A DNA stretch of 64,000 nt from Mustelus asterias (GCF_964213995.1 NC_135804.1:59768001-59832000); one strand, 5' to 3'; counted from the stretch's first letter, positions 8,261 to 52,424 are shown. Numbers and translations are program-made. The notes: generated from the letters alone by a model not told the origin.

Positions 8261-9302
8261 GGCCTCGATTCTCCCATCGCCACCCGCAATTTTTCTGTCG
8301 GGCGTCGAGATGCGCGTCGCCGGCCTTGAACAGGGATTTGCGCATGTGCTGGGAACGCATGCTCATCTCCCAGAGCCGGCGAGCAGTCGCTGGTCAGACC
8401 ACGCTGGAAGCCGGCGGGAAGGCAAGTAAGTAATTTAAATATTTATGAAATATCTTTTAAATATGTTAATTAGTTCGTTATCAGGACCGTTCAGGTCCCG
8501 ATCGAATCTCCCACCCCGCCAGGAGTACTTCATGCCGGCGGGGTTCAGACTTGGTCCCCACGTTCGGGGAACTAACGGGAGACCGCGCTGGAATGGAGGC
8601 AAACTCGGGACCCCCCAGGCGTTCGGGCGGCGGGGGGGGGGTGGGGGGGAGGTGCCCCTGAGCATGGGCACCCTGACAGTGCCAGCCTGTGCCCCCTGGC
8701 ACTGCCCAAGGGACAAAGTGCCCATGCCCGTGGGCACCTTGGCACTGCCCATCGGGCATTGGGCAGTGCCAAGGGAGAGGGGCATATTGTGGGCGGGGCC
8801 TTGGGGCGATCGGTGGGGTGGGAGGGGGGGGGGGTCCGGCTGCTTCAGGATCGGCCTGGGATGAAGGGAGGGCAGCGATTGCGGGAAGCTGGGGGGGCGT
8901 GTTCTGCGGGGGGGGGGGGGCTGTCTCCGGTGGGGGGTCTGACCCCGGAGGGGGTCGGGGGTGTCTTCCGGGGTGAGAAGGGTAGGGGGATCGCCACTGC
9001 TGGGAGGGTTGCGCATCGGGGCGCTCGGGGGGCGGGGGGGGGGGGGTGCAGAGGGGCGACGGGGACGGTCCGCGCTGGCCAGGAAATTGCTGTGAGGGCC
9101 ACGATCGGGCCATAGCGGGAAAGGGGAGTTGGAGGAGCAGCAGTGCGGTGGTCCCGGACTGGCCAGCGATCGGGTTGGATTCATGACTGGGACCTCTGCA
9201 GTGCGCAGATTGCGGAGAATCAGGTGAGAAGCTGAACTGTCAAAGCAGCAGGGATTTAGAACAGTTTTGCTACCAATTCAGCACTTTTGGGAAAATCCGC
9301 CC
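8261..9302. mobile_element. GC-rich non-autonomous DNA transposon (MITE, PIF/Harbinger-like ends) inside the Gypsy element
   Basis: Imperfect terminal inverted repeats GGCCTCGATTCTCCCA / TGGGAAAATCCGCCC; abrupt GC shift; long G-runs; Gypsy sequence on both sides. Confidence 0.6.
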
Positions 9303-9691: not shown

Positions 9692-12600
9692 TAGAACATA
9701 ACATAGAACAGTACAGCACAGAACAGGCCCTTCGGCCCACGATGTTGTGCCGAGCTTTATCTGAAACCAAGATCAAGCTATCCCACTCCCTATCATCCTG
9801 GTGTGCTCCATGTGCCTATCCAATAACCGCTTAAATGTTCCTAAAGTGTCTGACTCCACTATCACTGCAGGCAGTCCATTCCACACCCCAACCACTCTCT
9901 GCGTAAAGAACCTACCTCTGACATCCTTCCTATATCTCCCACCATGAACCCTATAGTTATGCCCCCTTATAATAGCTCCATCCACCCGAGGAAATCGTCT
10001 TTGAACGTTCACTCTATCTATCCCCTTCATCATTTTATAAACCTCTATTAAGTCTCCCCTCAGTCTCTTCCGCTCCAGAGAGAACAGCCCTAGCTCCCTC
10101 AACCTTTCCTCATAAGACCTACCCTCCAAACCAGGCAGCATCCTGGTAAATCTCCTCTGCACTCTTTCCAGCGCTTCCACATCCTTCTTATAGTGAGGTG
10201 ACCAGAACTGCACACAATATTCCAAATGTGGTCTCACCAAGGTCCTGTACAGTTGCAGCATAACCCCATGGCTCTTAAACTCCAACCCCCTGTTAATAAA
10301 AGCTATCACACAAAAGGCCTTCTTCACAGCTCTATCCACTTGAGTGGCAACCTTCAGAGATCTGTGGATATGGGCTCCAAGAACTCTCTGTTCCTCCACA
10401 GTCTTCAGAACCCTACCTTTGACCCTGTAATCCACATTTAAATCAGTCCTACCAAAATGAATCACCTCACATTTATCAGGGCTAAACTCCATTTGCCATT
10501 TTTCAGCCCAGCTTTGCATCCTATCTATGTCTCTTTGCAGCCTACAACAGCCCTCCACCGCATCCACTACTCCACCAATCTTGGTGTCATCAGCAAATTT
10601 ACTGATCCACCCTTCACCCCCCTCCTCTAAGTCATTAATAAAAATCACAAAGAGGAGAGGACCAAGCACTGATCCCTGTGGCACTCCGCTAGCAACCTGC
10701 CTCCAGTTCGAAAATTTTCCATCCACCACCACCCTCTGTCTTCGATCAGATAGCCAGTTACCTATACAATCGGCCAACTTTCCCTCTATCCCACACCTCC
10801 TCACTTTCATCATAAGCCGACCATGGGGGACCTTAGCAAACGCCTTACTAAAATCCATGTATATGACATCAACTGCCCTACCTTCATCAACACACTTAGT
10901 TACCTCCGCAAAATATTTAATCAAATTTGTGAGGCACGACTTGCTCTTCACGAATCCGTGCTGACTATCCCGGATTAATCCGCATCTTTCTAAATGTTCG
11001 TAAATCCCATCCCTAAGGACCTTTTCCATCAATTTACCTACCACCGAAGTAAGACTAACCGGTCTATAATTACCAGGGTCATTTCTATTCCCTTTCTTAA
11101 ACAGAGGAACAACATTCGCCACTCTCCAGTCCTCTGGCACCATCCCCGTGGACAGTGAGGACCCAAAGATCAAAGCCAAAGGCTCTGCAATCTCATCCCT
11201 TGCCTCCCAAAGAATCCTAGGATACATTTTATCAGGCCCAGGGGACTTATCGACCTTCAGTTTATTCAAAACTGCCAGTACATCCTCCCTCCGAACATCT
11301 ATTTCCTCCAGCCTATTAGCCTGTAACACCTTCGCTTCCTCAAAAACATGGCCCCTCTCCTTGGTGAACACTGAAGAAAAGTATTAATTCATCACCTCGC
11401 ATATCTCTACTGACTCCATACACAAGTTCCCACAACTATCCTTGACCGGCCCTAACCTCACCCTGGTCATTCTTTTATTCCTCACATAAGAGTAAAAAGG
11501 CTTGAGGTTTTCCTTGATCCGACCCGCCAAGGACTTCTCTTGTCCCCTCCTCGCTCTCCTAAGCCCCTTTTTCAGCTCATTCCTTGCTAACTTGTAACCC
11601 TCAATCGAGCCATCTGAACCTTGTTTCCTCATCCCGACATAAGCTTCCCTCTTCTTTTTCACAAGACATTCCACCTCTTTCGTGAACCATGGTTCCCTCA
11701 CTCGGCCATTTCCCCCCTACCTGACAGGGACATACCTATCAAGGACACCCAGTATTTGTTCCTTGAAAACGTTCCACTTTTCATTAGTGCCTTTCCCTGA
11801 CAGTTTCTGTTCCCAACTTATGCCCCCTAATTCTTGCCTAATCGCATCATAATTACCTCTCCCCCAATTGTAAACCTTGCCCTGCCGTACGGCCCTATCC
11901 CTCTCCATTGCAATAACAACAGACACCGAATTGTGGTCACTATCTCAAAAGTTCTCTCCCACAACCAAATCTAACACTTGGCCCGGTTCATTTCCCAGTA
12001 CCAAATCCAATGTGGCCTCACCTCTTGTCGGCCTATCCACATATTGTGTCAGGAAACCCTCCTGCACACACTGCACAAAAACTGCCCCATCCGAACTATT
12101 TGACCTACAAAGGTTCCAATCAATATTTGGAAAGTTAAAGTCCCCGACGACAACTACCCTGTGACCTCCACACATATCCATAATCTGCTTAGCAATTTCT
12201 TCCTCCACATCTCTATTACTATTTGGGGGCCTATAGTAAACTCCTAACAACGTGACCGCTCCTTTCCTATTTCTAACGTCAGCCCATATTACCTCAGTGT
12301 GCAGATCCCCCTCGAAGTGCCTTTCCGCAGCCATTAAACTATCCTTGATTAACAATGCCACTCCTCCATCTCTTTTACCAGCTTCCCTACACTTACTGAA
12401 ACATCTACACCCTGGAACGTCCAACAACCATTCCTGTCATTGTTCTACCCACGTCTCCGTAATGGCCACAACATCGTAGTCCCAAGTACCAATCCACGCC
12501 CCAAGTTCACCTACCTTGTTCTGGATGTTCCTTGCATTGAAGTAGACACGCTTCAACCCACCTTCCTGTCTAACAGTACCCACCCTTGACCCTGATACCT

Positions 12601-17131: not shown

Positions 17132-17511
17132 ACAAAGAACAACGAACTGTATAGTACAGGGACAGGTCCTTCAGCCCGCCAAGCCTGCCCCGATACATGA
17201 CGCCTTTCTAAACTAAAGAACTTTTGCTTATATGTGGTTCGTATCCCTCTATTCCTTATCTATTTATGTATCTGCCAAAATGCCTCTTAAATATTGCTAT
17301 TTTGTCCATGCCCGTCAAAATTTTGTAAACTACTATCAGATGGCCTTCGAAGTTCAAGTGGAAGCAAACCAAGTTAATCCAGTGTCTCATCATACCTAAT
17401 ACCCTTCAAAACAGGCAACATACTGGTAAACCTTTCTGTACACTCGCCAAAGTTTCCACATCCTTCTAATAGTGTGGCAGCCAGAACCTTATGCAGTATT
17501 CCAAATGTGGC
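17132..17511 (-). mobile_element. CR1 LINE 3' part (split by ERV insertion)
   Basis: CR1 3' tail and RT end; sequence ...CCAAATGTGGC resumes at 26993 CGAGCTAAAATTCTGTACATCTGC, as in the uninterrupted CR1 copy near 48440. Confidence 0.85.
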
Positions 17512-18186
17512 TGTTGTAGGTAAAAAACCTCTGACACTAATAGTAGATCAAACTGCAGTGTTTATTTTCACAATTGTGGGAGAAGTGAGGTTCCTAACAG
17601 TGGACCCCTGGCCTTCTCCTCGAACACAAGTAAGCACAGAGTTTATATATGTCCCGGGCCCCGCCCTCATTACATTGCAATTCTCTAAGATGTCTGTCAT
17701 TGTTCATGGTGAGATTCTTGTTGTATTAGCAGTATCTTCCTCTGCGTAGTTTGTTCGATCTCCAAGGCCACGATTGTTCGGCATTTATATCCTTGAAACA
17801 ACATCACAGGTTTTGCACAAACAAGTTAACTAATCTACATGCAGGTTTGTACAATAATTTATATCAGGATAAGATGAATAACGTATGATGAATATATATA
17901 TATGAATCTATGGTGATTCAAAGACAGAAGGCATACATGTCAACTTCATCGTGTTAAACAAAGGTACATGAAAATGGAGACTGTTTAGCTTATTTCGAGC
18001 TGGGTTAATCGGATTTCTTGATAACAAATGGAGACAGAGGAATAGCTGTTCCTTTTATCTGGCACAGACATGAAAAACACCGAACTCTGACAAAAACATG
18101 GACTCTGCAGTGTTCTCAACAAAATTACAGAGTTTGGGTCTTAATGCTTAAGTGTGACAAAGTTCATTAACCCATTCCCGACTGCA
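17512..18186 (-). repeat. ERV 3' LTR (675 bp)
   Basis: Direct repeat of 26311-26987, preceded on - strand by the PPT; retains a GGGCGGGG GC box next to the TATA. Confidence 0.95.
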
Positions 18187-18198
18187 CTCCCCCTTTTT
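18187..18198 (-). promoter_or_regulatory. Polypurine tract
   Basis: - strand AAAAAGGGGGAG abutting the 3' LTR. Confidence 0.9.
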
Positions 18199-18237
18199 GA
18201 TCGGATGCCAGGTCCAAACATGGCAGTTATGACCAAC

Positions 18238-19644
18238 TCAGAACCACATGTTATCGGGGAATGGGCCTAGCTCCTTAGTCGGGAGGTCTGCCCCCTCCGC
18301 CTGTACACTTGCGACTGTCATAATTCGCGCTGTTACTGTTTTGCAACAGGCGTTCAATAATGCCATACAAACACAGCAAGTAATTACAATTACAATTAAT
18401 ACAATCAATCCATGCATCAGGTATGGACCCCACGACCCGAACCATTGCCCCAGCCAGCCCGGAGGGTTATAATCATGATATTGGTTCCCTTCTTCCTGTA
18501 TTGCTTTTGCTACTTGTTTAATATGATCTGCTAAGCGAGTTATATTCTCCGAAGCTTCGGGAATATATGTACAGCATTCGAAGCCAACTATGGCACATGT
18601 TCCACCTTGGAAGGCTAGCACATAATCGAGTTCCAATCAGTTCTATAACGCCACAGTCCGAATAGCTACGACCTCTGCTGACATTTCAGAGATGGCCATG
18701 CTCACCTCCTCGAACCCATCCTTAGACTTATTTGTAACTTTCTCTAGGGTTGAGGACATCCGTATAAGTTCCTGTGCTGTCTTTGCCGTCCCATAAAATG
18801 GGTAGGCTATCATGAAGAATCGTTCTGTCTCACTAATGGGTCGCTTAGCCCTAAGCAGGTGTATTTCGGGGTGGTCCCGTAAGTCAATGTAATGGTGAAC
18901 ATAAGGCACCACATATGCCAAATAACACGATCCTGTTCAATTCCAGGGAAACCACGGATAGGCATTGTTTCCACAGACAAAATAGGTACCATTATATGCA
19001 GTCATCTCGCTTACATAAGCGGAGGAGAGGCTAACTGGGACAGTGACTATGGGGCACTGGATTGTGACCTGTATCATGGCCTCAGCGTCATCAGTGATAT
19101 CAATCTGCTGTATACAGTAGCTACGGCCAACAGGTATGGTTCCATTTCTTATCAGGCAGATAACTCCCCTTTGTTCACAATGAAGTAGGGTGGGGAATCT
19201 GATCTGTTGTAGCTGGGCTGGTAATTCTTCTTAAAGGACGATAAAGTGCACCCTCCGCCCCCTAGCCTTGAAACAACATCACTGTTGCTGATACCCTGCA
19301 TAGTGGTACCCGATGGGGTTTTAAATGTCAGTTGTCTTGTCCCTTTCTGGGTTCCATTCCTTATTTAAAACCCATTCAATTACTTCTGGAGCTGATAAAG
19401 GGATAGGAAATAAGGGAATTCCTCCCTTTCCTCCGTGCATGGGAATGTGTGAACAGACCCAGCACTTGCTCAGATTCGATTGTGATGCATACAGATAAGA
19501 CATATACACAAAGGTGTTCATACAATAGACAGAGTCATCATTACAGAGATGATCACTGTGCTTCACCCCTAACTCATAATTCAATTTATATTCTCCTGCT
19601 ATGGCTAACAGGGCCAGGGTCCTGAGTATCAGCATGAGAAGCAT
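18238..19644 (-). pseudogene. env: ERV env, gamma-type (SU CWVC; furin RAKR; ISD plus CX6CC; TM anchor), with multiple stops/frameshifts
   Basis: Signal peptide MLLMLILRTLALLAIAG; SKCWVCSH; LLRAKR|PISETERFF; VAL*N*LELDYVLAFQGGTCAIVGFECC; hydrophobic anchor LMHGLIVLIVIVITCCVCMALL. Confidence 0.92.
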
Positions 19645-19789
19645 CTTATCACTTACTAATATCCCGCGCGACCGTTATACAATGGTCCAAAGGCTATATC
19701 GCCCACGCGCAACACCGCGGATCCGCGAACCCGTTCAGCTTGTTTGGAGGTCACTCGTTGTTTGCTTATATCTGTAAGTGGAGTATATC

Positions 19790-20250
19790 ATATGTTTTTC
19801 CAATTAATTTCAGCATATTCAACTGAGTATATACAGGCACAGATATCTCCACTAATTATAACTTCATACGGCTCATTTCATTTTTGTACAAGCCCTGATT
19901 TGTTAGGTAATATTTTTACTAGGACATCCCACTGTTGGGACTGTCAGGGAGCATTTCAAGCTCTCTCTGCATCTCTTACTTTTTGATTGTCTTTTACCGA
20001 TTTATGCATCCCTTTTAGTTGGGTGCTTAGTTCCAAAACATATCTCTTGATTTTATCTTTTAGTGGACCTACATCGGTCCCACCTGTTATGATGCTTTTT
20101 GGTAATTGCATCGTCCGTCCTGTCATTAGCTCATAAGGGGTTAATCTGGTTGTTTGGTTTGTAGCAACCCTTAAACTCATTTAGTATGGTGGGCAATACC
20201 TTCATCCACGTTTTTTTTCCCGATGTCTGTATGGCCTTCGCCAGTGCAAA
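19790..20250 (-). pseudogene. Second, divergent integrase C-terminal fragment
   Basis: ALAKA..WMKVLPTILMSLRVATNQTTRLTPYELMTGRTMQLP..DVGPLKDKIKRYVLELSTQLK..EPYEVIISGDICAC, paralogous to ~22850-23156. Confidence 0.85.
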
Positions 20251-22748
20251 GTAGTTTTGCCCAATGTAATTAATTGTGCTATGCTTTAAGTTAATTTAAG
20301 CTAATTTGGCCTCGGCAGCTTGGAATTCTGAGTCCAATTTAGAAACCTAGCTGCATTCTCTGATAGTACGATGTAAGGTAAACAAACTTTCTCATGGCCA
20401 AGTTGTTGATGTAGCTGGAGACTGCTTGTATGTAATAATCAGTTATGCTTTAGAAACAGATGTTTTGTTTTTTTTAATCTCAGTACTGGTTTTTGGTTGG
20501 TCTCCCTCTCCTTTCTCCAAAATAACCGTTATTTCAAAAATAATGCTTAAAGAAAGGCATATTTACTTCAGATCAGTCGAGTTTATTCTGAAGAAATAAA
20601 TAGACCCTTCAATTGGCTTGGGGCGAATCACACAACACTTTGCACTGGCTGCAGCTGGACATTTTATCAAAAGACATCGCTTTTCTCATTTAGATCACAT
20701 ACCATACAACTCTGATCATTATATGATGTATTTTTACATTATATCTAATTTGATCATTTGCTTGTCCATATTTAAAAGTGCAATGTTTAAGCAGAAATGA
20801 TCCTTCTATAGACAGATTGTCTCACAAGGTAAACACCAGTGTTTCGTGTTCATAGATGCCAATTGTATGCTGCCATACACAGCTCTTTAAAAACACAGAT
20901 AACCGAATAAGCCGTTTGTTGTGTGCAGTCGAATGCTGCAAGATTTTTGAGTCTGGCTGCAAAGCCAGTCTCCAACTCTTTTTCTCTCTCTCTCAAGTAA
21001 TCCGGTTTCACTTCCTGTCATGTTAATGTTAATTGTGCAAGCTATTACAAATTATGGCAAAGAATGGTTACATGTTTGGAATAACTAGCCTTTTTTTCAC
21101 AGACTTATGTTTTTATCAATACACAATATATATTATGTCGGGTATCTCAAAACCCTCTTAATTTAATTTTTAATTAATCTGTTTCCATTTTTAAACTGAG
21201 CTCCAGATCAGAATTCCTTCATTTTCAGAACGATAACAAGCACAATACATATAACAATAACAAGAGTTACTTGATTAGAAATGTTTTGGTTTGCTTCCTA
21301 GCTGGCTAGGTTTTATGCTTTGCAGTGTTCTTAGATTTGGAAAACCTTGAACAATAGATAGAACAATTCCAACGGCAGTATATAATTTTAACTAGTTACA
21401 CTATCAGAACTATCATCAATGTTAGATGATTTAAATGATGTAATTTGTTGCATGTTATCGGAACATCACATATGTCTTGAATTTCATATCGGTAACTAAC
21501 TGGCAACACAAGTTCAAATAATTCATGGTGTTCAATGGTTGGCATCAAATGCAAATTAAAAATACTCAAGGACAACATCTTTATTTGTATTAACAACTGA
21601 GGTTTTAACTGATTTAATCTCCTGCTGTAACTTGGGATAATCGGAACTACGATTCATTGATTTGATAGACTTAAACTGACTCATAGACAGTATATTCACC
21701 TCATTCTTTTGTTCCTGCTTTTCTATTTTTCATCAAATTACTTATTATTTTTTTAACTTCTCAACTATACTCTTATAATTTCAACTTCAAGACAAGGAAA
21801 GAGCACATGGTCCTTCCAAGGTCTAACTCCTTTCTCAACATTAAAACGAACAACAACAAAACATTCACGCAGTTAAACACACAGATACACATGGAAGCTT
21901 CCAACATTTATTCAGACTTAACATCTTAAACTGGAATGGAAGTAAAACATTTAAGAATACAGACCGTTGATTAACAGTCGCTCTTATGCTGCTGCCTTCC
22001 AAACTGTAATTCAACTCAAAACAGAAGTAAATTCAAGAAATCTTATCACTTTAATCTTTAACCGTTTGTAACAAATACTTCCGCAGCATTTTCTTATCTC
22101 ATTATTCCACTGAATTATTTCCCTCATCTCTAATTATATTGATTTGTCAATTTGGTATTATAGGCGGGCACTCCCTTTTAGCCCGTCTGAAATTTAATAC
22201 AGTTTCATGGTTGATCCACGTAACACATTTTAATTCGAATGCATTATGGCAGTACAATAATTCCCAGTATGACACACACACTGCCATTCTACCTTATGTA
22301 ACTCCCTTCTCTGTTAAATTTTGACTATATCTTAAAATTACTGCAAGTCTTATAACTCAGAGGAACATAAACAAGTGATTCATCATCATTTCAAATACGC
22401 AGGAATAATTCTTTCTATTTATCTTTTCAACTTCAGTTCTATCAAAAATACATTTTCAAATTTAACAAAAGCCTGATCCAAATAATCCATTTATTTTATC
22501 ACTTTTAAATATCCCTCCTAAAATAATTATCTTTACACAGGCAGATGCAAGATCGAATCTACTGTGTGCTTAAATGGCTAACTCTCCTTACGACTCTTCA
22601 GATGTAATCTAATGCTATTATTCCCACATTCCCCAAATCTCTGTCCGATGCATTATCGTAAAATTTACTGGGGAACGTAATTTATTAAACTCGCATTGAT
22701 CTGCTATACCCCATTCCAGCACATGAGGCTCTCGATCGCAATTATATC

Positions 22749-25060
22749 TTACATCTCTCCCTCTCTCTCTCCCTCGAGTGAGAGAAACTTACAACCTGCT
22801 TGTTTTCTTTCAACCTTTATTCCCCTTTTAACTGTTTTGTTGCGGTAATTGGTGTATTCCTTTAACTGAGTCCAATGCTTCCAGACACCCCTACCTTGCA
22901 TATCTATGCAGGCACAGGTGTCTCCACTGATAATGACCTCATAGGGGCCTTTCCAAATGGGGGCAAATCCAGGTTTTCCTGGTAGTGTTTTTACCATAAC
23001 CTTGCTGCCTGCCGGTGGTACCTCCGGGGTCTGTTCTAGTTTGTTGTGCTCATCTATCACTATTTGTTTGTCCCATACTGTTTTCCGCATATCTTTCAAT
23101 TGGGAGCTTAACTCTAATACATATCGTCTAATCCTGTCCCTTAATGGGCCTACATCTGCATATTTCCCTGATCCATCCACAAACAGGGCCAAATCTGGTG
23201 CCTCCAGGGGCACATCTTTTATTCTACTCTCCTCTACCTCTTCGTCTACGTCCCCACATGAGTGGGGAGACCCTTCACCTAACATTCCTTCTACGGGGTT
23301 CATTCCCATGTCTCGTGCAATGGTGATGGACTTAGTGGGTGGGAGAAGCACTGCCTCCCACTTCGCCCTTCTCATGTTTGAGACAGACCGCAATTTTCCT
23401 GTGTTCAGCATTTCCACCAAGGTATGTTTGGTGCGTAAAACAATATTCCCCGTCATTATGATGGGCTCGCTGACCTTTTTACTACCCATGCCGCACAATC
23501 TAGTGCGGCTATACATCTGGGTAACCCGGTTACTACGGGGCCCTCCGCTGTGGAATAATAACCCACGGGTCGCTGTTTGTCCCCATGGACCTGTGTGACT
23601 ACTGCCGATTAAAACCCCCCTTCGTTATTACAATAAATATGAAAATCTTTACTAGCGTCAGGCAGTCCAAGTTCTGGAGCCTTCATTAGTTCTACTTTTA
23701 GTTTACTATGTACCCTTTCCTGTTCTGATCCCCATTCTATAACTTCTAGAGCGGGTTTCCCCCCTTTTACTAGCCTTTGTATTGGTTCGACGAGCCTTGC
23801 GAATTCTGGTATAAAGTGGCGGCTGTAATTAAACAACCCCAAAACCTTCCTTACCCCTCGGACGGTTACTGGTCTTGGCATTTGCTGTCCAGTGGCATTT
23901 CTTTGGTCCCCTGGGATATCAGGTGTCCCAAATATAATACCTGCGCTTTCCCTATTTGGGCCTTCCTGGGGCTCGCCTTTAGTCCCTGTTCTTTGAAGTG
24001 TTTCAGGTCTGAGTATAGTGCCGTCTGGTGTTCTGCTCTAGTTTCGGAGGCTATTAAGATGTCATCTACATACTGCAGGATTGTGCTCCCCCTCGGGACC
24101 TCTACTTGTTCTAATATCTTACTCATGACCCGGTGAAATATAGCCGGGCTATTGTGGAAGCCTTGCGGGAGCCTCGTCCATGTGTACTGTTTATCACCGA
24201 CGGTAAATGCAAATTTATCTTGTGAATTAAAGTCCAGGGGAATGGACCAAAATCCATTGGCGATGTCTAATACCGTAAAGATTCCATGGGATGGTGATAA
24301 CCCGTTTAAAATGGTAGATGGACTAGCCACGATGGGCTGTAACTTGGGGGTCACTTTATTTAAAGCGGTATAATCAATGGTTAATCTATAACTCCCGTCT
24401 GGTTTAGGCACCGGCCAGGTGGGGGAGTTGGTGGTATTTGTGGTTTCCCGTAGTATCACTCTTTTTACCAATCCCTTTACAAGTTCTTCAACTGCTTTTT
24501 TGGCCTCGGGCTTAATCGGGTATTGTCGGTGTGGTTTATGTTCTGGCCCTTCCATGAGTATAAGGGGAATTTTGACTAATCCAGTATCCAGGTTTGTTTC
24601 CGCCCATACCCCGAGGATTGAGGCGCAAATGGTGCCAAATCCATTACATTCTAACTGCCAGTTGCGTCCAGTTGCAGATGCTGCATGGATGGTTTCTAAA
24701 TGGTTAACATATGTTCCTACCCTGTCTTTTCTCCCATCGGGGCGGGGCCAAATCAATTCGCCTTTCCCGCAATCTATTAAGACTTCGTATTCTTTCATCA
24801 GGTCATTTCCCATAATAGTTCCTTCATTATTTTGACATACATAAAATCGCATAGGTATATACAGGTTATTAATTTCTACTAGGGTGGTTTCCCTTAAGTA
24901 GGCAGGGTCTTCTGTCCGTTCACACCCCTTATATAAATCATTTTGTTTGTGGTGGGCAAGGGTAGATCAGTGATAGATATGGAGGCTCCCGTGTCCACCA
25001 GCATTTCGCATGTCTGCCCCCTACTAGTGCAGACACGTAGATTCTACCCTCCTGTTCATT
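22749..25060 (-). pseudogene. pol: ERV pro-pol (frameshifted; RNaseH/IN core deleted)
   Basis: Protease MLVDTGASIS (~24975-25008) and GTIMGNDL; RT NSPTWPVPKPDGSYRLTIDY, LDIANGFWSIPL, WTRLPQGFHNSP, YVDD; tether; RNaseH LFVDGS fused to IN C-terminal WKGPYEV. Confidence 0.92.
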
Positions 25061-25249
25061 CGTATCGGGATTTTGGAACAACATTGGCAAGCCTATTATC
25101 TCCGGTTTGTTATCTTTCCTTTGTTTGGCTTGCTGTTCTAATCTTTTTCTCGGTCTTGTCTTTCCTTTGCAGTCTCTCTCATTCTGGTCTATCTCTTTTG
25201 TCTTTCTCATACGCCTCACATTCTCACTTCAACATTACCCAAGTTTAGG

Positions 25250-26010
25250 GTTTCCCTCATTATCACATACACATACCCTCTTCTACGTGCATTATCCCCC
25301 TTTGGAGCCCTACAGTGCCTGACAAAGTGACCCAGTTTCCTACAATTATGGCACGCAGCCTTTGGTTTATCTTCTCTACTGTTTGCCCTAACGTTTTCCT
25401 GTTTTATTTGTAGGTATGGTTTCTCATCTGGTCCATCTCTAATTCCAGATGCCCAATTCCACTAATTCATCATAAGTCTGGGTATTGAGAACTCCCATTT
25501 TAAGGATTTTTTGGTGAGCTGGCGACAGCCCGTCTTTAAATGCTTGTAAAAAGGCTCTATCTGTTCGGGCAGCTTCGGGTACTCCCCAACATTCTTGGTA
25601 TATTCTAAAGAGTCGCTCCCCAAATTCGGAGGCTCTTTCACCCCTTTGTTGATTAACATTTTAATTTTTTTTTTGACATCAGCCCATTTCTTACCCGAGA
25701 CTGAAACCTGTTCAATTAATCCGGCCAATTGATGAACTAAGAGAACTCCAATTTTCTTAGTTTTGTTTTTCTTTTCCTTTTCCAACCATTTTCGTTGTTG
25801 GTCTAGTGGATGGTCTAAATCCCATCCCCCTTTTATCATCTGTTTTATGAGTCTGTACCTCTTGATCATAAATTCATTTATTAGGGACCCAGGGGGTCCC
25901 CACTGTCTTTGTCCCGCCATAACACTGATAAGTTTATACTCACCACCTGGAGTGACTTATTCTCCCTTCTCACTCTCCCTCTCCCAGGTCGCTCTTATCG
26001 GAGTCTGGTG
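25250..26010 (-). pseudogene. gag: ERV gag remnant (short, disrupted) with NC zinc knuckle
   Basis: ORF 25462-25920 plus downstream KAACHNCRKLGHFVRHCRAPK (CX2CX4HX4C) at ~25300-25360. Confidence 0.75.
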
Positions 26011-26290
26011 ATACCTGTAAGGGTTGATCAGATCCCTCCGTACCACCGCTTATACTATTTTTTTAAAGCCGGCTTCTCCTTAGAAGGCCTTTCCTTCTAA
26101 CTCTTACACATGAAGGCTTTTCCTTCAAACTCCGGCGATCACTCAGACAGTCTCTATCTCACTCACGTCTAAACATCACACACTCTTATCATAGATGATT
26201 ACGCACTGCATTTTGACCCACTCTATTTAGAGTTCGATAATTTATTCCGGTGTCCCGGTCGTGGCCATTCAACCGGACCGTAAACAGATT

Positions 26291-26308
26291 ATCCCGGACG
26301 AGCCCCCA
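26291..26308 (-). promoter_or_regulatory. Primer binding site, tRNA-Pro
   Basis: - strand TGGGGGCTCGTCCGGGAT, 2 nt after the 5' LTR; the same 18-mer as the MLV tRNA-Pro PBS. Confidence 0.92.
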
Positions 26309-26310
26309 AT

Positions 26311-26987
26311 TGTTGTAGGTAAAAAACCTCTGACACTAATAGTAGATCAAAATGCAGTGTTTATTTTCACAATTGTGGGAGAAGTGAGGTTCCTAACAGT
26401 GGACCCCTGACCTTCTCCTCGAACACAAGTAAGCACAGAGTTTATATATGTCCCGGGCCCTGCCCTCATTACATTACAATTCTCTAAGATGTCTGTCATT
26501 GTTCATGGTGAGATTCTTGTTGTATTAGCAGTATCTTCCTCTGCGTAGTTTGTTCGATCTCCAAGGCCACGATTGTTCATCATTTATATCCTTGAAACAA
26601 CATCACAGGTTTTGCACAAACAAGTTAACTAATCTACATGCAGGTTTGTACAATACTTTATATCAGGATAAGATGAATAACGTATGATGAATATATATAT
26701 ATATGAATCTATGGTGATTCAAAGACAGAAGGCATACATGTCAACTTCATCGTGTTAAACAAAGGTACATGAAAATGGAGACTGTTTAGCTTATTTCGAG
26801 CTGGGTTAATCGGATTTCTTGATAACAAATGGAGACAGAGGAATAGCTGTTCCTTTTATCTGGCACAGACATGAAAAACACCGAACTCTGACAAAAACAT
26901 GGGCTCTGCAGTGTTCTCAACAAAATTACAGAGTTTGGGTCTTAATGCTTACGTGTGACAAAGTTCATTAACCCATTCCCGACTGCA
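26311..26987 (-). repeat. ERV 5' LTR (677 bp)
   Basis: TGCAGTC...CCTACAACA on - strand; about 9 substitutions plus one 2-bp (TA) indel versus 17512-18186; TATA-like CATATATAAA and AATAAA on - strand. Confidence 0.95.
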
Positions 26988-26992
26988 GTGGC

Positions 26993-28240
26993 CGAGCTAA
27001 AATTCTGTACATCTGCAACATGACTTCCATGTTTTTATACTCTCGGCCCCGATTGCTTCAGGCAAGCTTGCCATAGACCCTCTTGACCAACTTATCCACA
27101 CGTGTTACCACTTTCAGGGAACTGGAGACCTGTATGCTTAAATCCTTTTGTATGTTAATTCTTCTCAGGGTTCTGCCATTTACTGTATACTTCCCTCCTG
27201 CCTTTGACCTTCCAAAATGCATCACCTCACCTTTGTCTGGGTTAAATTCTATCTGCCATTTCTTCACTCATGTCTCCACCCTATCCATATCCTGCCGTAT
27301 CCTCTGGAAATCCTCTTCACTATCCACACGCAGCTCCCCGAATCTTTGTGTCGTCCACAAACCGACATTCTCCTCCAAAGCATTTACACACATATTACAA
27401 ACAACGGGGTCCCAGCACTGATCCCTGTGGACACCACTGGTCACATAACTCAAGTCAGAAAAACACACTTCCACCGCTACTCCCTGTCTTCTATGATGAA
27501 GCCAGTTCTGTATCCATCTTACCAGCACACCACAGATCCCATGCTGCACATTCTGTATCAGCCTGCCATGAGGTACCTTCACAAAGACCTTATTAAACTC
27601 CTTGTAGACATGTCCTCCTCAATCACCTTTGCCGCTGACTCAAAATACTCATTCAGGTTTATGATAGGCGACCGCCCCAGCACAAAGCATGTTCCTATCG
27701 CTAATAAGTCTATCTTTTTCCAAATGTAAGTAAATGCTGCCCCTACGTATGCTCTCCAATTATTCCGCTACCATTGATATAAGGCTCAGCAGCCTGTAAT
27801 TTCCTGGATTATCCCTCTTGCCATTCTTAAACGAAGGATCAACACTGGCTATTCTCCAGTCCTCTGACACGTCTCCTATGACTAAAATGGAGAGAACGTT
27901 TTCCTCCAAGGCCCTAGAAATTTCCTCCCTCAGTATTCTGGGATAGATCCTGTTAGGTCCACGGGACTGCTCTAACTTAATGCTTTTCAAAACATCCCAC
28001 ACCTGTTCCTTTTTAAATCAACATGACATTCTCTAGCCTCACCATCCACTATGTCCTTCTCCTTTGTGAATACTGATGCAAAGTATTCGTTAAGCACATC
28101 ACCCACTTTCTTTGGTTCTACGCATAAATTCCTCCTTTGTCCTTGAGTGAATCTATCCTTCCACGAGCTACACTCTTGCTCCTTGTACATATACATAATG
28201 CCATGGGATTTTCCGTAATCCGTAATGCCAACATGCCATT
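26993..28240 (-). mobile_element. CR1 LINE RT, degenerate (5' part of the ERV-split copy)
   Basis: ORF fragments KVPHGRL, WQIEFNPDK, PGNYRLLSL, NEYFASVFTKE. Confidence 0.88.
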
Positions 28241-32559: not shown

Positions 32560-33110
32560 ATTTGTTTACTTTTATCTTTGCAATATAGCAAATTCCGTCC
32601 TGATCTAATACAATCTGTCCCTGCAAAACTCACCTATGTGTTTGCAACATCCAAGTTTTACTACTCTGATTAACTTCTGGCCAGCCACACACACCGAACG
32701 CTCTATAAACATACAGTTACCTAACAGTTTGCTGGCAATTCCACAACTCTCATCAAATCGTTTCATCCATTAGCTATGTGTTCGCTGATCTACATTTGCT
32801 CCCAATTAAGCAATGCCATTTGAAATACTTATCCTTCCTATTTACACAGCCTCCTTCCAATCTCTGTGATGTTCTCTAGCCGTAAAGCCGTCGGCTGTAC
32901 CGCACTCTCCAAATTACGGCTCTTTGAGGATTCCAAAACTCCATTATTCCGCCATTGGCAGCCTACACGCCGCTTTCAACGCACCAAGCACTGTATTGCA
33001 CTACCAAAACCTTAATCTCCCCGCCTTTTTCCTCCTCTAATAAACACCTTAACACTTCCCTATTTGAAGTTTTACGGCCCAAGATACCTCGTTGTTCGAT
33101 GAGGTGTCAA
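32560..33110 (+). mobile_element. L2-like LINE 3' fragment
   Basis: Degenerate CTGATCTACATTTGCTCCCAATTAAGCAATGCC motif resembling L2 ORF2 ends. Confidence 0.5.
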
Positions 33111-33144
33111 TTTTTACATTACCATGGCGCTTTTAAACATTTCG

Positions 33145-35619
33145 ACTCAAATTGGACGTGGAGGGCTTGAGGAAGAGTTCTTGGAATGCTGTCGGGATTG
33201 TTTCATTGAACAGTATGTTACAGAACCTACGAGAGAGCGAGCTATCTTGGATCTGGTTCTGTGCAATGAGACAGGTAGGATTAAGGATCTTCTTGTGAAG
33301 GATCCTCTTGGGATGAGTGATCATAATATGGTGGAATTTCTGATACAGATGGAGGGTGAGAAAGTAGGGTCCCAAACCAGTGTCCTCTGCTTGAACAGAG
33401 GGGAGTACGATAGGATGAGGGTGGAATTGGCTAATGTAGACTGGGCGAGCAGACTGGTAGGTAGGACAGCTGAGGAACAGTGGAGGATTTTTAAGGAGAT
33501 TTTTTTAAGTACTCAGCAAAAATATATTCTGGTGATAAAGAAGGACTGTAAGAAAAAGGATAACCAGACGTGGATAACGAAGGAAATAAAGGAGAGTATT
33601 AAAATAAAATCAGATGCGTACAGAGTCGCCAAAAATAGTGGAGAATTAGTGGATTGGGAAAGCTTCAAAGAAAAACAAAGAACGACTAAGAAAGCGATTA
33701 AGAAAGGAAAGATAGATTATGAAACTGAACTAGCTCAAAATATAAAAACTTATAGTAAAAGTTTTTACAAGTATATAAAAAGGAATAGAGTGGCTAGAGT
33801 GAATGTTGGACCCTTGGAAGATGAGAGGGGGGATTTAATAGTGGAAAACGAGGAAATGGCTGAGACTTTAAATAAGTTCTTTGTGTCGGTCTTCACGGTG
33901 GAAGACACAAATAGTTTGCCGAATATTAGAGATCGAGAGTTGGTGGGAGGGGAGGTCCTTAATACAATTACTGTTACTAAGGACGTGGTGCTTGGTAGAC
34001 TAATAGGACTGAAGGTAGACAAGTCCCCGGGCCCGGATGGAATGCATCCCAGGGTACTGAAAGAAATGGCTGAGGTAATAGCAGATGCGTTAGTAGTAAT
34101 TTATCAAAATTCGCTGGACTCTGGGGTAGTGCCGGCTGACTGGAAAACAGCTACTGTTATGCCGCTGTTTAAAAAAGGAAGTAGACAAAAGGCGGGTAAC
34201 TACAGGCCGGTTAGCTTAACGACCGTAGTTGGGAAGATGCTAGAGTCCATTATTAAAGAGGAAATAACAGAGCACCTGAATAAGAATGGTTCGATCAAGC
34301 AGACGCAGCATGGATTCATGAAGGGAAAGTCGTGTTTGACGTATCTACTGGACTTTTATGAAGATGTCACCAGTGCGGTTGACAGAGGGGAACCGGTGGA
34401 TGTGGTGTTTTTAGATTTCCAGAAGGCGTTCGATAAGGTGCCTCACAAAAGGTTGCTGCAGAAGATTGGGGTACACAGAGTTAGGGGTAAGGTGTTGGCG
34501 TGGATTGGGGATTGGCTATCTAACAGGAAGCAGAGAGTTGGGATAAATGGGTGCTTTTCTGGTTGGCAGTTGGTGACCAGTGGCGTGCCGCAGGGATCGG
34601 TGCTGGGGCCTCAATTGTTTACCATTTACATAGATGATCTGGAGGAGGGAACTGAATCTAGGGTATTCAAGTTTGCTGATGACACGAAGGTGAGTGGGAA
34701 AGCGAATTGTGTGGAGGACGCGGAAAGTCTGCAGAGAGATTTGGATAGGCTGAGCGAGTGGGCGAGGATCTGGCAGATCTAATATAACGTTAGCAAATGT
34801 GAGGTTATCCACTTTGGAAGAAATAATAGTAAATTGGAATATTATTTAAATGGAGAAAAATTACATCGTGCGACTGTGCAGAGGGACCTGGGGGTCCTTG
34901 TGCACGAATCGCAAAAACTCAGTCTGCAGGTGCAGCAGGTGATCAAGAAGGCGAATGGAATGTTGGCCTTTATCGCGAGGGGGATAGAATATAAAAGCAG
35001 GGAGGTCTTGCTGCAACTGTACAAGGCACTGGTGAGGCCGCAACTGGAGTACTGTGTGCAGTTTTGGTCCCCTTATTTGCGAAAGGATATATTGGCCTTG
35101 GAGGGAGTGCAGAGAAGGTTCACCAGGTTGATACTGGAGATGAGGGGTGTAGCTTATGAGGAGAGATTAAACAGATTGGGTCTGTACTCGTTGGAGTTTA
35201 GAAGGATGAGGGGTGATCTTATAGAGACATATAAGATAATGAAGGGGCTGGATAGGGTAGAGGTGGAGAGATTCTTTCCACTTAGAAGGGAAACCAGAAC
35301 TAGAGGGCACAGCCTCAAAATAAGGGGGAGGGCCGGTTCAGAACAGAGTTGAGGGGGAACTTCTTCTCTCAGAGGGTAGTGAATCTCTGGAATTCTCTGC
35401 CCATTGAAGTGGTGGAGGCTTCCTCGTTGAATATGTTTAAATCACGGGTAGATAGTTTTCTGATCGATAAGGGAATTAGGGGATATGGGGAGCAGGCGGG
35501 TAAGTGGAACTGATTCGCTTCAGATCAGCCATGATCTTGTTGAATGGCGGGGCCGGCTCGAAGGGCCAGATGGCCTACTCCTGCTCCTATTTCTTATGTT
35601 CTTATCTTATGTTCTTATT
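33145..35619 (+). mobile_element. CR1 LINE, young, 5' truncated (APE C-terminus plus RT), ending ~290 bp upstream of the IgSF gene ATG
   Basis: 552-aa ORF 33124-34782 plus 34834-35352 with PQGSVLGP and FADD; tail (CTTATGTT)n. Confidence 0.95.
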
Positions 35620-47449: not shown

Positions 47450-49512
47450 AAAGAACAAAGAACAATACAGCACAGGAACAGGCCCTTCGGCCCTCCAAGC
47501 CCGCGCCGCTCCCCGGTCCAGGATTGAATCCTGAATCCAGGATCCCCGCCCAATTTTCCAGCCTATCTACATACCAATATCCTATCCACCGAGCTGTCCC
47601 TCACAGCTACGATGCTTTGTTCATTACAACCTATTAACTTACCCCCACCCCCCCATTCCAGACCATGTGATCTCCAGGGAGAGGCGAAAACCCAGAGTGA
47701 AAAACCCCAGGGCCAATATGGGGAAAAGAAAATCTGGGAAATTCCTCTCCGACCCCCTGAGGCGATCGAAACGAGTCCAGGAGATCACAATGGCCCCGAT
47801 CGGAAAATGCTTCCCAACCCTAGTCATTTCCACTTCCACGAACACCATATGAATTCCCTGTCCCCGAGACAGGTTCCCAACTATCCGCAGTCTCACTCTG
47901 TACTGGCACCAGCAAGATGATCGTAGAATGAAGCCTTGAAACGAGAAACCAGGAACAATTAGCCCGCGCCGCTCCCTGGTCCAAACTAGACCACTCTTTT
48001 GTATCCCTCCATTCCCACTCCGTTCATATAGCTGTCTAGATAAGTCTTAAACGTTCCCAGTGTGTCCGCCTCCACCACCTTGCCCGGCAACACATTCCAG
48101 GCCCCCACGACCCTCTGTGTGAAATATGTCCTTCTGATATCTGTGTTAAACCTCCCCCCCTTCACCTTGAACCTATGACCCCTCGTGAACGTCACCACCG
48201 ACCCGGGGAAAAGCTTCCCACCGTTCACCCTATCTATGCCTTTCATAATTTTATACACCTCTATTAAGTCTCCCCTCATCCTCCGTCTTTCCAAGGAGAA
48301 CAACCCCAGTTTCCCCAATCTCTCCTCATAACCAAGCCCCTCCATACCAGGCAACATCCTGGTAAACCTCCTCTGTACTCTCTCCAAAGCCTCCACGTCC
48401 TTCTGGTAGTGTGGCGACCAGAACTGGACGCAGTATTCCAAATGCGGCCGAACCAACGTTCTATACATCTGCAACATCAGACCCCAACTTTTATACTCTA
48501 TGCCCCGTCCTATAAAGGCAAGCATGCCACATGCCTTCTTCACCACCTTCTCCACCTGTGACGTCACCTTCAAAGATCTGTGGACTTGCACACCCAGGTC
48601 CCTCTGCGTCTCTACACCCTTTATGGTTCTTCCATTTATCGTGTAGCTCCTCCCTACATTATTCCCACCAAAATGCATCACTTCGCATTTATCAGGATTG
48701 AACTCCATCTGACATTTCCTTGCCCAAATTTCCAGCCTATCTATATCCTTCTGTAGCCTCTGACAATGTTCCTCACTATCTGCAAGTCCTGCCAGTTTTG
48801 TGTCGTCCGCAAACTTACTGATCACCCCAGTTACTCCTTCTTCCAGATCATTTGTATAAATCACAAACAGCAGAGGTCCCAATACAGAGCCCTGCGGTAC
48901 ACCACTAGTCACAGGCCTCCAGCCGGAAAAAGACCCTTCCACTACCACCCTCTGTCTTCTATGACCAAGCCAGTTCTCCACCCATCTAGCCACCTCCCCC
49001 TTTATCCCATGGGATCCAACCTTTTTCACTAGCCTACCATGAGGGACTTTGTCAAATGCTTTACTAAAGTCCATATAGACAACATCCACGGCCCTTCCTT
49101 CGTCAACCATTTTGGTCACTTCTTCAAAAAACACCACCAGGTTCGTGAGGCATGACCTCCCTCTCACAAAACCATGTTGACTATCGTTAATGAGTTTATT
49201 CCTTTCTAAATGCGCATACATCCTATCTTTAAGAATCTTCTCCAACAACTTCCCCACCACGGACGTCAAGCTCACCGGCCTATAATTACCCGGGTTATCC
49301 TTCCTACCTTTCTTAAATAACGGGACCACATTGGCTATCCTCCAATCCTCTGGGACCTCACCTGTGTCCAGTGACGAGACAAAGATTTGCGTCAGAGGCC
49401 CAACTATTTCACCTCTCGTCTCCCTGAGCAGCCTTGGATAGATTCCATCAGGCCCTGGGGATTTGTCAGTCTTTATATTCTCTAACAAACCTAACACTTC
49501 CTCCTTTGTAAT
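47450..49512 (-). mobile_element. CR1 LINE, young, 5' truncated, uninterrupted 503-aa RT ORF, extended 3' UTR
   Basis: ORF 47986-49497; tail (TTCTTTG)n; candidate TSD TGTTAC at 47444-47449 / 49514-49519. Confidence 0.95.
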
Positions 49513-52424
49513 ATGTTACCTTAAACATATATCACATTCTTCGTTTCAATAGATGACACCACTCCCACAACCAGATTGCTACGGACATACTGGGAGTAGA
49601 TCTTTGATTCCGTTTTATGCTAACTGCTATTCTATTCTCATGTTATGTATTTTCCAGTCTCGATTTCCTCTTCCCGTCCCCTTTCAACTTATTGTATCTG
49701 CCCTATTTCTTGTTTGAGTAATCCACCTGACATGCATCTTGCACTGGTTTTGTTTCAGCATAACGTCTACCTTCCTAACACCCAGCAGCCCTGCTTAACA
49801 TTGACTGTCTTTATCTCTTGTTGAAATGTATCTATCCTGGACCCGAAATGTTTCTTCCTTAAAGATTCCCCTATTGTTTCCTGAATTAACTTGTGCTCAA
49901 TTTTCATGTTGTAATATAGTACAGGCTAAATATAATCTCTTAATTAAAGCAGAGATAAATAAAACCACACATTTTTCACCCATGTTTCCCATCTCCTTAA
50001 AGACATTTCGGGTGGAGTACAATAGACCTTTTATATGGCTTTGACACAGAACGTGCGTTGGGGAGGTCAACCAAAAGACAAATTTTACCCTCATCAGAGG
50101 CCTACAACTTCAGGTCACTGATGAAAGATCAAGAATGGAAACCGTAACTTTGTATCCACCTCTTTGTTTCAAAGGAGTGTAAACCCAGTTGTCGCGTTCC
50201 ACCACTGACTGGTTGAAATTGAACAAAATCAAGAAATCCACATTGAAATGTTGGTGACCGTATATTCTTGTCAGATTAACCCATTATGAGGAGTCGTTGG
50301 ACGTCTCCCAAGAGAGGAATGCTGTGTAAAAGCAAAGCATTTGTTTGTGTCACAGTATCACAGTCAAGTGCATTGCTTATCTGTTTTTTTCTTCAGACGG
50401 AATGACTCTGAGGAAGCGTACGAGGCTATTCAACCTTTCAGTTCGTTTCTGACGTTAACTTAAAGCTTGGCTGATCCATGCCTGAACCCCCAATTTATTC
50501 ATTGTTGCGCCACATACCTTGAAATCTTTATCCAAGAAACATGTGTCCATCTAAATTCTTGATTAGCTCAACGGGTTTCTGAGAGTTGCAAATATCCATT
50601 ACAATTTGTTTGAAAATGAATATGTGCAATATTCATATTATAGTAGTTCTTATTAACTATTAACTTGTATTTGCTCAAGTGATTTTTGTATTTATTATCT
50701 CACCCTACACTAGGTTCATTTAGGCGTTTATTTTATAAATATGATTAGCATTCCACAATGCCATGTGCAAGGCGACAAAATATGGAGAGCTGTTTTTCAG
50801 CATTTGAGTGTGTACAGTGTTCTGGTGGTAAGTCATCAGCCTGACTATTTCTCCCCTTACAAATTTCTCCCGGGTTGCACTACAGGTCCAGCATTTTGCT
50901 GTTTTCGCTTCCGATTTTCAGCATCATCTATGTTTCATTTCTTATTTCATGAGGTGGAATGTTTTGGGAGATAACTAACTGCAGCCGAAGTGCTGACGAC
51001 TCAGGCTTCTGCTACAGATGGTGGAGTGCATTGTGAATGAGCTGTGGGGAGAGCAAGGGTGAAGAAGAGTATCATCATATATTGTGATGGGGTTGAATGT
51101 AACCAAATGGAGTGGGATTTATTTCCGGTGGAAATTAATGCCCGGCATAGATCATTAGGGATCAGTGTCAGTTTTATTTATGGCATGAATTATTTGTGGT
51201 TTTGTATGCACCCCAAACGTTCGGTTAAAGGGATTATGTCGACGTAAGGGCAAGGTAAAACGAACCGGTCGTGTTGCAATCAACCTCAGCGTAAGTTATA
51301 CCTGAATACTATGTGCCAACTTCTATATATAAAAGTTTTCACTTTGCAGACCTCTATAAGATACATTGCATTTCCCGACTTTACTCTGTATTTACGGCAG
51401 ACTGATTTTTTTTCAACAATTGCTCCAAATACAAAGTACTGCGGATGCTGGAAATATAAAACGATTATCCGACATCTGAAGAATAATCACGACCTGAAAT
51501 GTTGTCTCAGTTTCTCTTTTCATAGATGCTACCAGAGCCCCTTAACACTTCTACATTTCCGTTTTTATTTAATATTATATTTGAAATGAACAGACACTGG
51601 TGAAAGTTCTAGGTGTTATTTGAACTTAAATTCTACTCGTATTCATTTGAGACTTTAACCATTTAGGCAATACGAGATAGTTTGGCGAATGAACTCAGGA
51701 AATCTTCAACAAATTGCAGATTAATTCCTCCTAAAGACAGGGCGGGAATTGGCGAGCGTCCGAGGGCTTTTGCATTTCGGTTCAGACTTTGGGCACACAC
51801 TAAATCTCCAGGCGGCATGTTACGGGACCGTCCCGTCCATCGATGGGCGGTTCGAGCCCGGAAATGGGCGAGAGGCTGAATAATTTATCTAAATATACTT
51901 AAATGTGAATTTACATTTTAGCGAGTCCAGCGCTCATATAAATGAGAACAAGCACAAAGACAGAACACGCCTTAAGCCAATTGAATATCAGCCTTGCCGC
52001 AATTAGGCCAGTTAGAATGCAATAACAACATTGCCCACCATATGAGTTGTGACTTGGAATAAGTTAAATGGCAGAAGCTTTCACTGACCAAGTTGCACAG
52101 CAAGTGCCGCTGCACTGAGGGAAACAGAAATTACAGTGAAAGAAATGTTAAATTAAATTGATCTCCGACCCAAAAGTAGAAGTCTAGCATGGATCACTGA
52201 CTTTTGATGGAGAGAGGGGTGATAAAGTAAAAGGGAGAGGGGAGAATTAAAAGGGATCAGTTCCGAAAAATGTAACAATATTTTTCTGTTGACGCCATTG
52301 TTTTCAGTGCACATGGATGGATACCCAGTTTTGTCTTCTTTTAGCGGCAACGTATTAGCTACACAGATAATATTTTGTTATCTTCAGTCCATTGGTGGAT
52401 ATTCAGATGATAGATAATAATATA

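Follow-up and report, generated by a model that had tools for sequence, protein, structure and literature searches.

The question raised by this locus is whether one provirus has drawn its parts from different classes of retrovirus. The 64,000-nt stretch of Mustelus asterias DNA analysed here (GCF_964213995.1 NC_135804.1:59768001-59832000, hereafter the window) holds, at positions 17512-26987, an endogenous retrovirus (ERV) that a sequence-only reading had taken for a mosaic, in which a reverse transcriptase (RT) of foamy/ERV-L type was combined with a gamma-type envelope, a tRNA-Pro primer-binding site (PBS) and a Gag carrying a CCHC zinc knuckle. Our results make it probable that the element belongs instead to a defective multi-copy ERV subfamily, with a Pol most likely of a class III-side grade related to snakehead retrovirus (SnRV), a gamma-type Env and a likely history of mobilisation in trans. 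The true mosaicism is local. The subfamily is non-autonomous, combines parts of two sister families and seems to have multiplied when its genes were already broken.

The provirus is real and lies on the minus strand, on which it starts with TG and ends with CA. Its terminal features are the following:

26311..26987, minus strand: 5′ long terminal repeat (LTR), 677 nt
17512..18186, minus strand: 3′ LTR, 675 nt
17507..17511 (left) and 26988-26992 (right): 5-bp target-site duplication GTGGC
26291..26308, minus strand: PBS, which we take to be of tRNA-Pro type; an 18-mer identical in reference records L047 and L057
18187..18206, minus strand: polypurine tract

The duplication and the Pro PBS, together with the single knuckle, three RT motifs, CWVC, RAKR and CX6CC named by the sequence-only reading, were all located at the expected positions. 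Both flanks (17355-17511 and 26990-27880) are collinear with a single long interspersed nuclear element (LINE) copy at 48292-49366 in the window, and the provirus is therefore a genuine insertion inside a LINE. The two LTRs are 98.7% identical, being separated by 9 substitutions and one 2-nt indel. This divergence of 1.3% corresponds to a rough age of about 3 to 30 million years, a range that uses a mammalian rate and an assumed shark rate, both quoted in PMC4422223.

The origin of the parts became apparent from the relatives of the element in the same genome. A search with the window RT returned 18,784 candidates, of which 150 were scored; all of these were at least 79% identical and fell into tiers. 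We took 37 stretches around RT and LTR matches and sorted them into three families and several intermediates, family A comprising the elements with the window LTR. Family B has an RT about 87-88% identical in amino acids to that of the window, another LTR, a PBS presumably of Phe type, two CCHC knuckles, an in-frame gag-TGA-pol arrangement and a gamma-type env. Family C has an RT about 80% identical, a PBS presumably of Ser type, two CCHC knuckles and a different env. The genes of families B and C are open, and their LTR pairs reach 99.4-99.7% identity; the in-frame gag-TGA-pol is found in L015, L008, L009 and L010. Nothing in the sister-family proteins matched a dUTPase or a GQR motif, and a Pfam search of the sister Gags gave no Gag_p30 match, their Atlas look-alikes mixing Gag_p24 and Gag_p30 clusters.

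Family B gag, pol and env match the window copy together, at 77-83% identity. Since a second integrase end of the window copy is nearest to family C, while env and the first integrase tail match family B (80% and 83%), the element is a mosaic of sister families and not of virus classes. Across the three families there are three PBS kinds (Phe-, Ser- and Pro-type) and different LTRs (L002, L009, window 26291-26308), so that close sister families in one genome are seen to differ in the kind of PBS, the number of knuckles and the type of env. Because all three vary in this way, they are unfit as class markers. The Pro PBS in particular had been read as a mark of gamma-like class I elements, and a deltaretrovirus-type record carries it too. 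The attribution to a chondrichthyan lineage, on the other hand, is probably correct, and a shark host is likely: in the Pol cluster of family C the closest protein with a name comes from Mustelus asterias, and the nearest envs come from sharks and rays.

The 40 records returned by a scan of viral contigs were headed by L018, a sequence of 10,688 nt with one CCHC knuckle, a gag-TAG-pol arrangement and a PBS that we take to be of Arg type. The GenBank length of SnRV is the same (PMC12193657), and it is by length and features, rather than by record name, that L018 matches this virus. Comparison of the window RT with 39 records gave L018 as the best exogenous match (44.6%, 182 bits), against the best foamy record (152 bits, 41%), two epsilon-type records (150 and 134 bits) and gamma-type records (135 bits at most). 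Furthermore, the RT motifs IDY and D-I-x-NGFWS occur in L018 and the foamy rows and in none of the crown class I rows displayed, and the window lineage has DY where epsilon-related class I elements have DLR or DFR. The CCHC Gag, held to be a mosaic sign next to such an RT, is the SnRV pattern, as L018 illustrates. An alignment-based structure model of the RT reached a predicted local distance difference test score (pLDDT) of 96, against only 36 for a single-sequence fold; its best BFVD match, an unnamed 1007-aa piece (Q88285_1, 42% identity), identifies nothing.

In a Pol tree of 42 rows and 897 columns, with families B and C as stand-ins (60 rows were gathered, and 18 redundant or short ones removed), three branches with supports of 99-100 divide the lineage from crown class I and two (96-100) from the SnRV/foamy group. 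Families A-C form one clade (98/97) with P0210 and with minnow and herring-cluster proteins. The approximately unbiased (AU) test (27 rows, 842 columns) was run under LG+F+G4, a comparatively simple model that is more easily misled by long branches. A position nested in crown class I was rejected (p=1e-7), as was sisterhood with foamy viruses (p=0.014); the best likelihood went to a broad class III clade (p=0.85), with 14 log units in favour of that grouping. A gypsy-rooted tree of RT and integrase recovered a class I+II clade (97) with the lineage outside it, base support being only 41-59, and trees of RT alone did not resolve its position among SnRV and foamy rows. The class label hinges on the long foamy and class II branches, while the two exclusions stay stable. 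By these trees and motifs the Pol is neither a member of the gamma/epsilon crown nor of foamy type, and the trees are compatible with an attachment near SnRV or on the class I stem. The sequence-only reading was thus right to keep the RT out of crown class I, and its link to foamy viruses gives way to motifs shared with the SnRV-matching L018.

The envelope region contains the following features:

18241..19674, minus strand: broken gamma-type env, with signal peptide, CWVC, RAKR, immunosuppressive domain (ISD), CX6CC and membrane anchor
19453-19464, minus strand: CWVC
18841-18852, minus strand: RAKR
18625-18654, minus strand: ISD, interrupted by two in-frame stops
18571-18597, minus strand: CX6CC

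The gamma-type signature (CXXC, ISD, CX6CC) is therefore present, in broken form, and it is not exclusive to class I. The ISD had been described as of LQNR type; it is there, but with its two stops it is not an open LQNR. The gamma-type assignment itself holds, the window env being 80% identical to that of family B, which matches TLV_coat (E=2e-18); foamy record L020 gave no match to env. The closest of 20 env relatives are from shark and ray. In a tree of the transmembrane subunit (TM), the window sequence joins that of family B and, less tightly, the envs of Pristis, gar and pike, at a distance from the MLV type, the nearest env being that of Pristis pectinata (P0318). It is our guess, unconfirmed, that the 'Ppe' of the element ERV-SA.a-Ppe, discussed below, stands for this species. 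By its sequence, the window Env is a non-mammalian gamma-type Env widespread in anamniotes. Residues 47-141 of the family B env are missing in the window copy, and since the same absence is common to five longer relatives that keep mid-pol and to L072, it is a lineage trait. The env of family C (L003:2704-4215, minus strand, 504 aa) is of another kind: its TM is closer to filovirus GP2 chains (best E=2e-15) than to syncytins (7e-6), it matches Ebola-like_HR1-HR2 in Pfam (E=7e-6), it lacks the CX6CC pattern, and only its TM can be aligned to the family B env (36%), despite 78% Pol identity.

The remaining genes of the window copy are heavily damaged, and they are arranged around a long spacer:

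25270..25935, minus strand: frameshifted gag remnant, with the N-terminal part, a deletion of ~180 aa, the major homology region (MHR) and one CCHC
25610-25651, minus strand: MHR in the gag remnant
25312-25353, minus strand: CCHC zinc knuckle, the sole one in the window copy
25053..25304, minus strand: 252-nt stretch replacing the second knuckle, also in other family A copies
24897..25054, minus strand: frameshifted protease, with LVDTGA at 24984-25001
23869..24966, minus strand: open frame of 366 aa with the RT core (RVT_1, E=4e-35)
24370-24429, 24235-24270 and 24136-24186, minus strand: the three RT motifs quoted by the sequence-only reading
24061-24072, minus strand: RT motif YVDD
23145..23929, minus strand: frameshifted segment with the RT connection domain and the first part of RNase H, cut off by a ~1.29 kb deletion
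22836..23159, minus strand: first integrase C-terminal tail (copy 1), 83% identical to family B
20300..22750, no strand: AT-rich non-coding spacer of 2.45 kb, 34% GC, conserved among family A copies
19827..20248, minus strand: second integrase end, 83% nucleotide identity to family C, 67% to family B and 65% to copy 1

Compared with family B, the window copy lacks Gag residues 119-301, the second knuckle and Pol residues 653-1078, that is, most of RNase H and integrase, and its gag-pol junction is damaged. The stretch replacing the second knuckle is 82% like a segment directly behind pol in the relative L075. These Gag and Pol deletions, the knuckle loss, the 2.45-kb spacer and the second integrase tail had all been missed before. 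Two knuckles are present in the longer same-LTR relative L065 and in families B and C, and the single knuckle is therefore a loss. The longest frame of the spacer (85 aa) is within the range of shuffled sequence, and the spacer matched neither Rfam nor the proteins and leaders of families B and C. Spacer and second integrase end, in varying length, were also observed in longer relatives that keep mid-pol (L065, L068, L069, L075, L076), some of them with other LTRs; for this reason both predate the deletions.

The damaged structure has nonetheless multiplied. The best 40 of 1509 candidates in a genome search with the LTR were all at least 95% identical, and the best 40 of 2067 and of 1748 candidates in two spacer searches were near-identical, these match counts being lower bounds and not copy numbers. 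Of 30 loci selected by RT or LTR, 21 carry the family A LTR, and 18 of these have the RNase H-integrase deletion, one being cut short and two (L065, L068) retaining mid-pol along with a full-length gag region. One stop in the ISD is common to 15 of the 18 deleted copies. Both flanks were available for 11 copies, nine of which show a perfect 5-bp duplication of their own (one of the others is mismatched and one does not match), and the LTR pairs of 13 copies differ by 0.2-4.3%. The defects would thus have preceded amplification, and integrase, RNase H and capsid would therefore have been supplied by helpers. Family A likely spread with proteins provided in trans by related elements, for which the longer same-LTR elements are natural candidates.

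A plausible course of events would start from a parent lineage in which Gag had two knuckles, Pol was made by read-through of a stop codon and Env had covalently joined surface and TM subunits. A template switch between co-packaged sister RNAs may then have produced the two integrase ends, separated by what is now a decayed spacer, and later deletions would have taken out parts of capsid, RNase H and integrase. The remaining RNA, retaining LTRs, PBS and polypurine tract, would still be a substrate for helper proteins in packaging, copying and integration.

Several observations weigh against a defective, trans-mobilised subfamily with an SnRV-related Pol, and the rival explanations draw on some of them. 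Of the 18 deleted copies, one (L017) is free of stops in the TM core and two are unreadable at the ISD. The LTRs and PBS of families B and C are not those of family A, and any helper remains putative. All trees except the RT-only ones use family B Pol (87-88% RT identity) as a stand-in, and no tree of any kind holds a named ERV-L, ERV-S, CmiERV or lokiretrovirus row. SnRV itself (L018) has an Env without a TLV_coat match and a PBS differing from that of the window. Finally, the AU test passes not only the class I stem (p=0.34) but also an SnRV-like clade (p=0.11) and SnRV sisterhood (p=0.08); a mixture-model tree including class II placed the lineage on the class I stem (SH-aLRT 95-99), and another put foamy and class II beside epsilon rows. 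The stem position is what one would expect of an early class I branch, epsilon-related in the manner of Pol-LE.1/LE.2, in which RT and Env would agree and no mosaic of classes would exist. This is also suggested by the best reference of the Gag, the epsilon-type L031 (E=2e-10), which comes before L018 (3e-7), and by a teleost member with an MLVIN_C match (P0006). We nevertheless regard it as unlikely, given the 14 log units in favour of the class III grouping, the IDY and D-I-x-NGFWS motifs and the gypsy-rooted position outside class I+II. The separate RT/Pol and TM trees that the sequence-only reading had asked for answer it in part: Pol nesting in crown class I is rejected beside a gamma-type TM, and the class I stem passes.

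That reading in its strong form, in which a foamy or ERV-L pol has recently recombined with a gamma-like gag, PBS and env, is hardly credible. Foamy Pol is indeed the top match in a PDB sequence search, marginally (131 bits against 129 for MLV RT), but foamy sisterhood is rejected, gag, pol and env move jointly in family B, and the sister families have an in-frame gag-stop-pol and two CCHC. Moreover, there is no dUTPase match, the RT has YVDD rather than YIDD, and foamy-like fish ERVs, as described in PMC5210030 and PMC5512871, are without Cys-His boxes and have Lys/Asn PBS. Scarcely better is the prospect of a hitherto unrecognised major clade between class I and the SnRV/foamy group. The lineage does form its own clade, with no exogenous reference attached, but large surveys covering shark and teleost ERVs have already described groups related to SnRV as well as ancestral groups of class I (PMC6001957, PMC8672886, bioRxiv 2021.11.23.469661; compared by description only). 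A narrower proposal can be put forward tentatively, with the balance of probability against it: families A-C would be an unnamed fish lineage between class I and SnRV/foamy, recently active in one shark genome, and swapping three PBS kinds and two env types (the classic CXXC/CX6CC type and one with a TM closest to filovirus GP2) at about 78-88% Pol identity. If true, they would offer a close-range model of envelope swapping at the base of the retrovirus tree. An SnRV-related Pol in a defective subfamily remains our preferred explanation.

Other observations concern the surroundings of the provirus and the data sets. Four more RVT_1 frames lie in the window (9776-11383, 33103-34779, 47989-49515 and 53321-54772); they are 65-70% alike and, by their motifs, presumably belong to CR1-type LINEs. 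At 8438-9277 there is a stretch of 57% GC with overlapping frames of 179-280 aa, possibly a CpG island; a Pfam search of one of these frames gave no match. The protein cluster of P0067 contains bird-type retroviral Pol sequences filed under Klebsiella pneumoniae, likely from contaminated bacterial assemblies.

How does this element compare with known systems? A literature search found no description of this family, of an elasmobranch SnRV-like family or of a Pristis ERV; the sequences of published surveys, which may include it, were not compared. The family may thus be unnamed, as had been suspected, but the pairing is not undescribed, because class III Pol and gamma-type Env have already been reported together (PMC8278194, bioRxiv 2021.11.23.469661). 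Nothing is overturned, since both this pairing and non-autonomous deleted subfamilies have been published. With CCHC normal beside an SnRV-side RT, PBS varying among sisters and the Env-Pol pairing published, the class-level puzzle dissolves. The remaining interest is the intermediate position of an unnamed lineage, together with env and PBS exchange among young sister families; it adds a shark family to a sparsely sampled region of the tree between class I and SnRV/foamy viruses.

Lokiretroviruses have an Env that resembles the paramyxovirus/pneumovirus fusion protein, unlike the TLV_coat type of the window lineage. Epsilon-related class I ERVs (SSSV, ZFERV and Xen1 types) share a non-mammalian gamma-type Env, a CCHC Gag and stop read-through, but Pol nesting in their crown is rejected, and they have DLR/DFR where DY is found here. 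Foamy viruses and fish foamy-like ERVs share the RT motifs DY, NGFW and YVDD and differ, according to PMC5210030 and PMC5512871, in having no Cys-His box, Lys/Asn PBS, accessory genes and another Env. Indeed, none of the hallmarks of foamy membership (a separate reading frame for pol, Lys/Asn PBS, foamy Env, Gag without Cys-His box) was found. The SnRV-like clade resembles the lineage in its best-matching exogenous RT, shared RT motifs, CCHC Gag, one-frame gag-stop-pol (as in the sister families) and fish host, whereas SnRV differs in its one knuckle, Arg-type PBS, long Env without the gamma-type signature and extra 3′ frames. The SnRV-related clade is named Huo in PMC6001957, the elephant shark CmiERV lineage I clusters with SnRV (PMC4422223), and cartilaginous-fish ERV RTs are mostly of clade III (PMC11089739). 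In bioRxiv 2021.11.23.469661, ERVs with a gamma-type Env are reported from six cartilaginous fish, including a class III SnRV-related Pol group, and ERV-SA.a-Ppe is named as combining class III Pol with class I Env. By description rather than sequence, the window element is like this type in having a class III-side Pol and a gamma-type Env in an anamniote. It is also like XtERV-S of Xenopus tropicalis (PMC8278194), with its class III pol, gamma-type env, CWxC near the start of the surface subunit, CX6CC, 5-bp duplication and many internally deleted copies; XtERV-S has YIDD, a dUTPase, a GQR without zinc finger and a Ser PBS, where the window copy has YVDD and CCHC.

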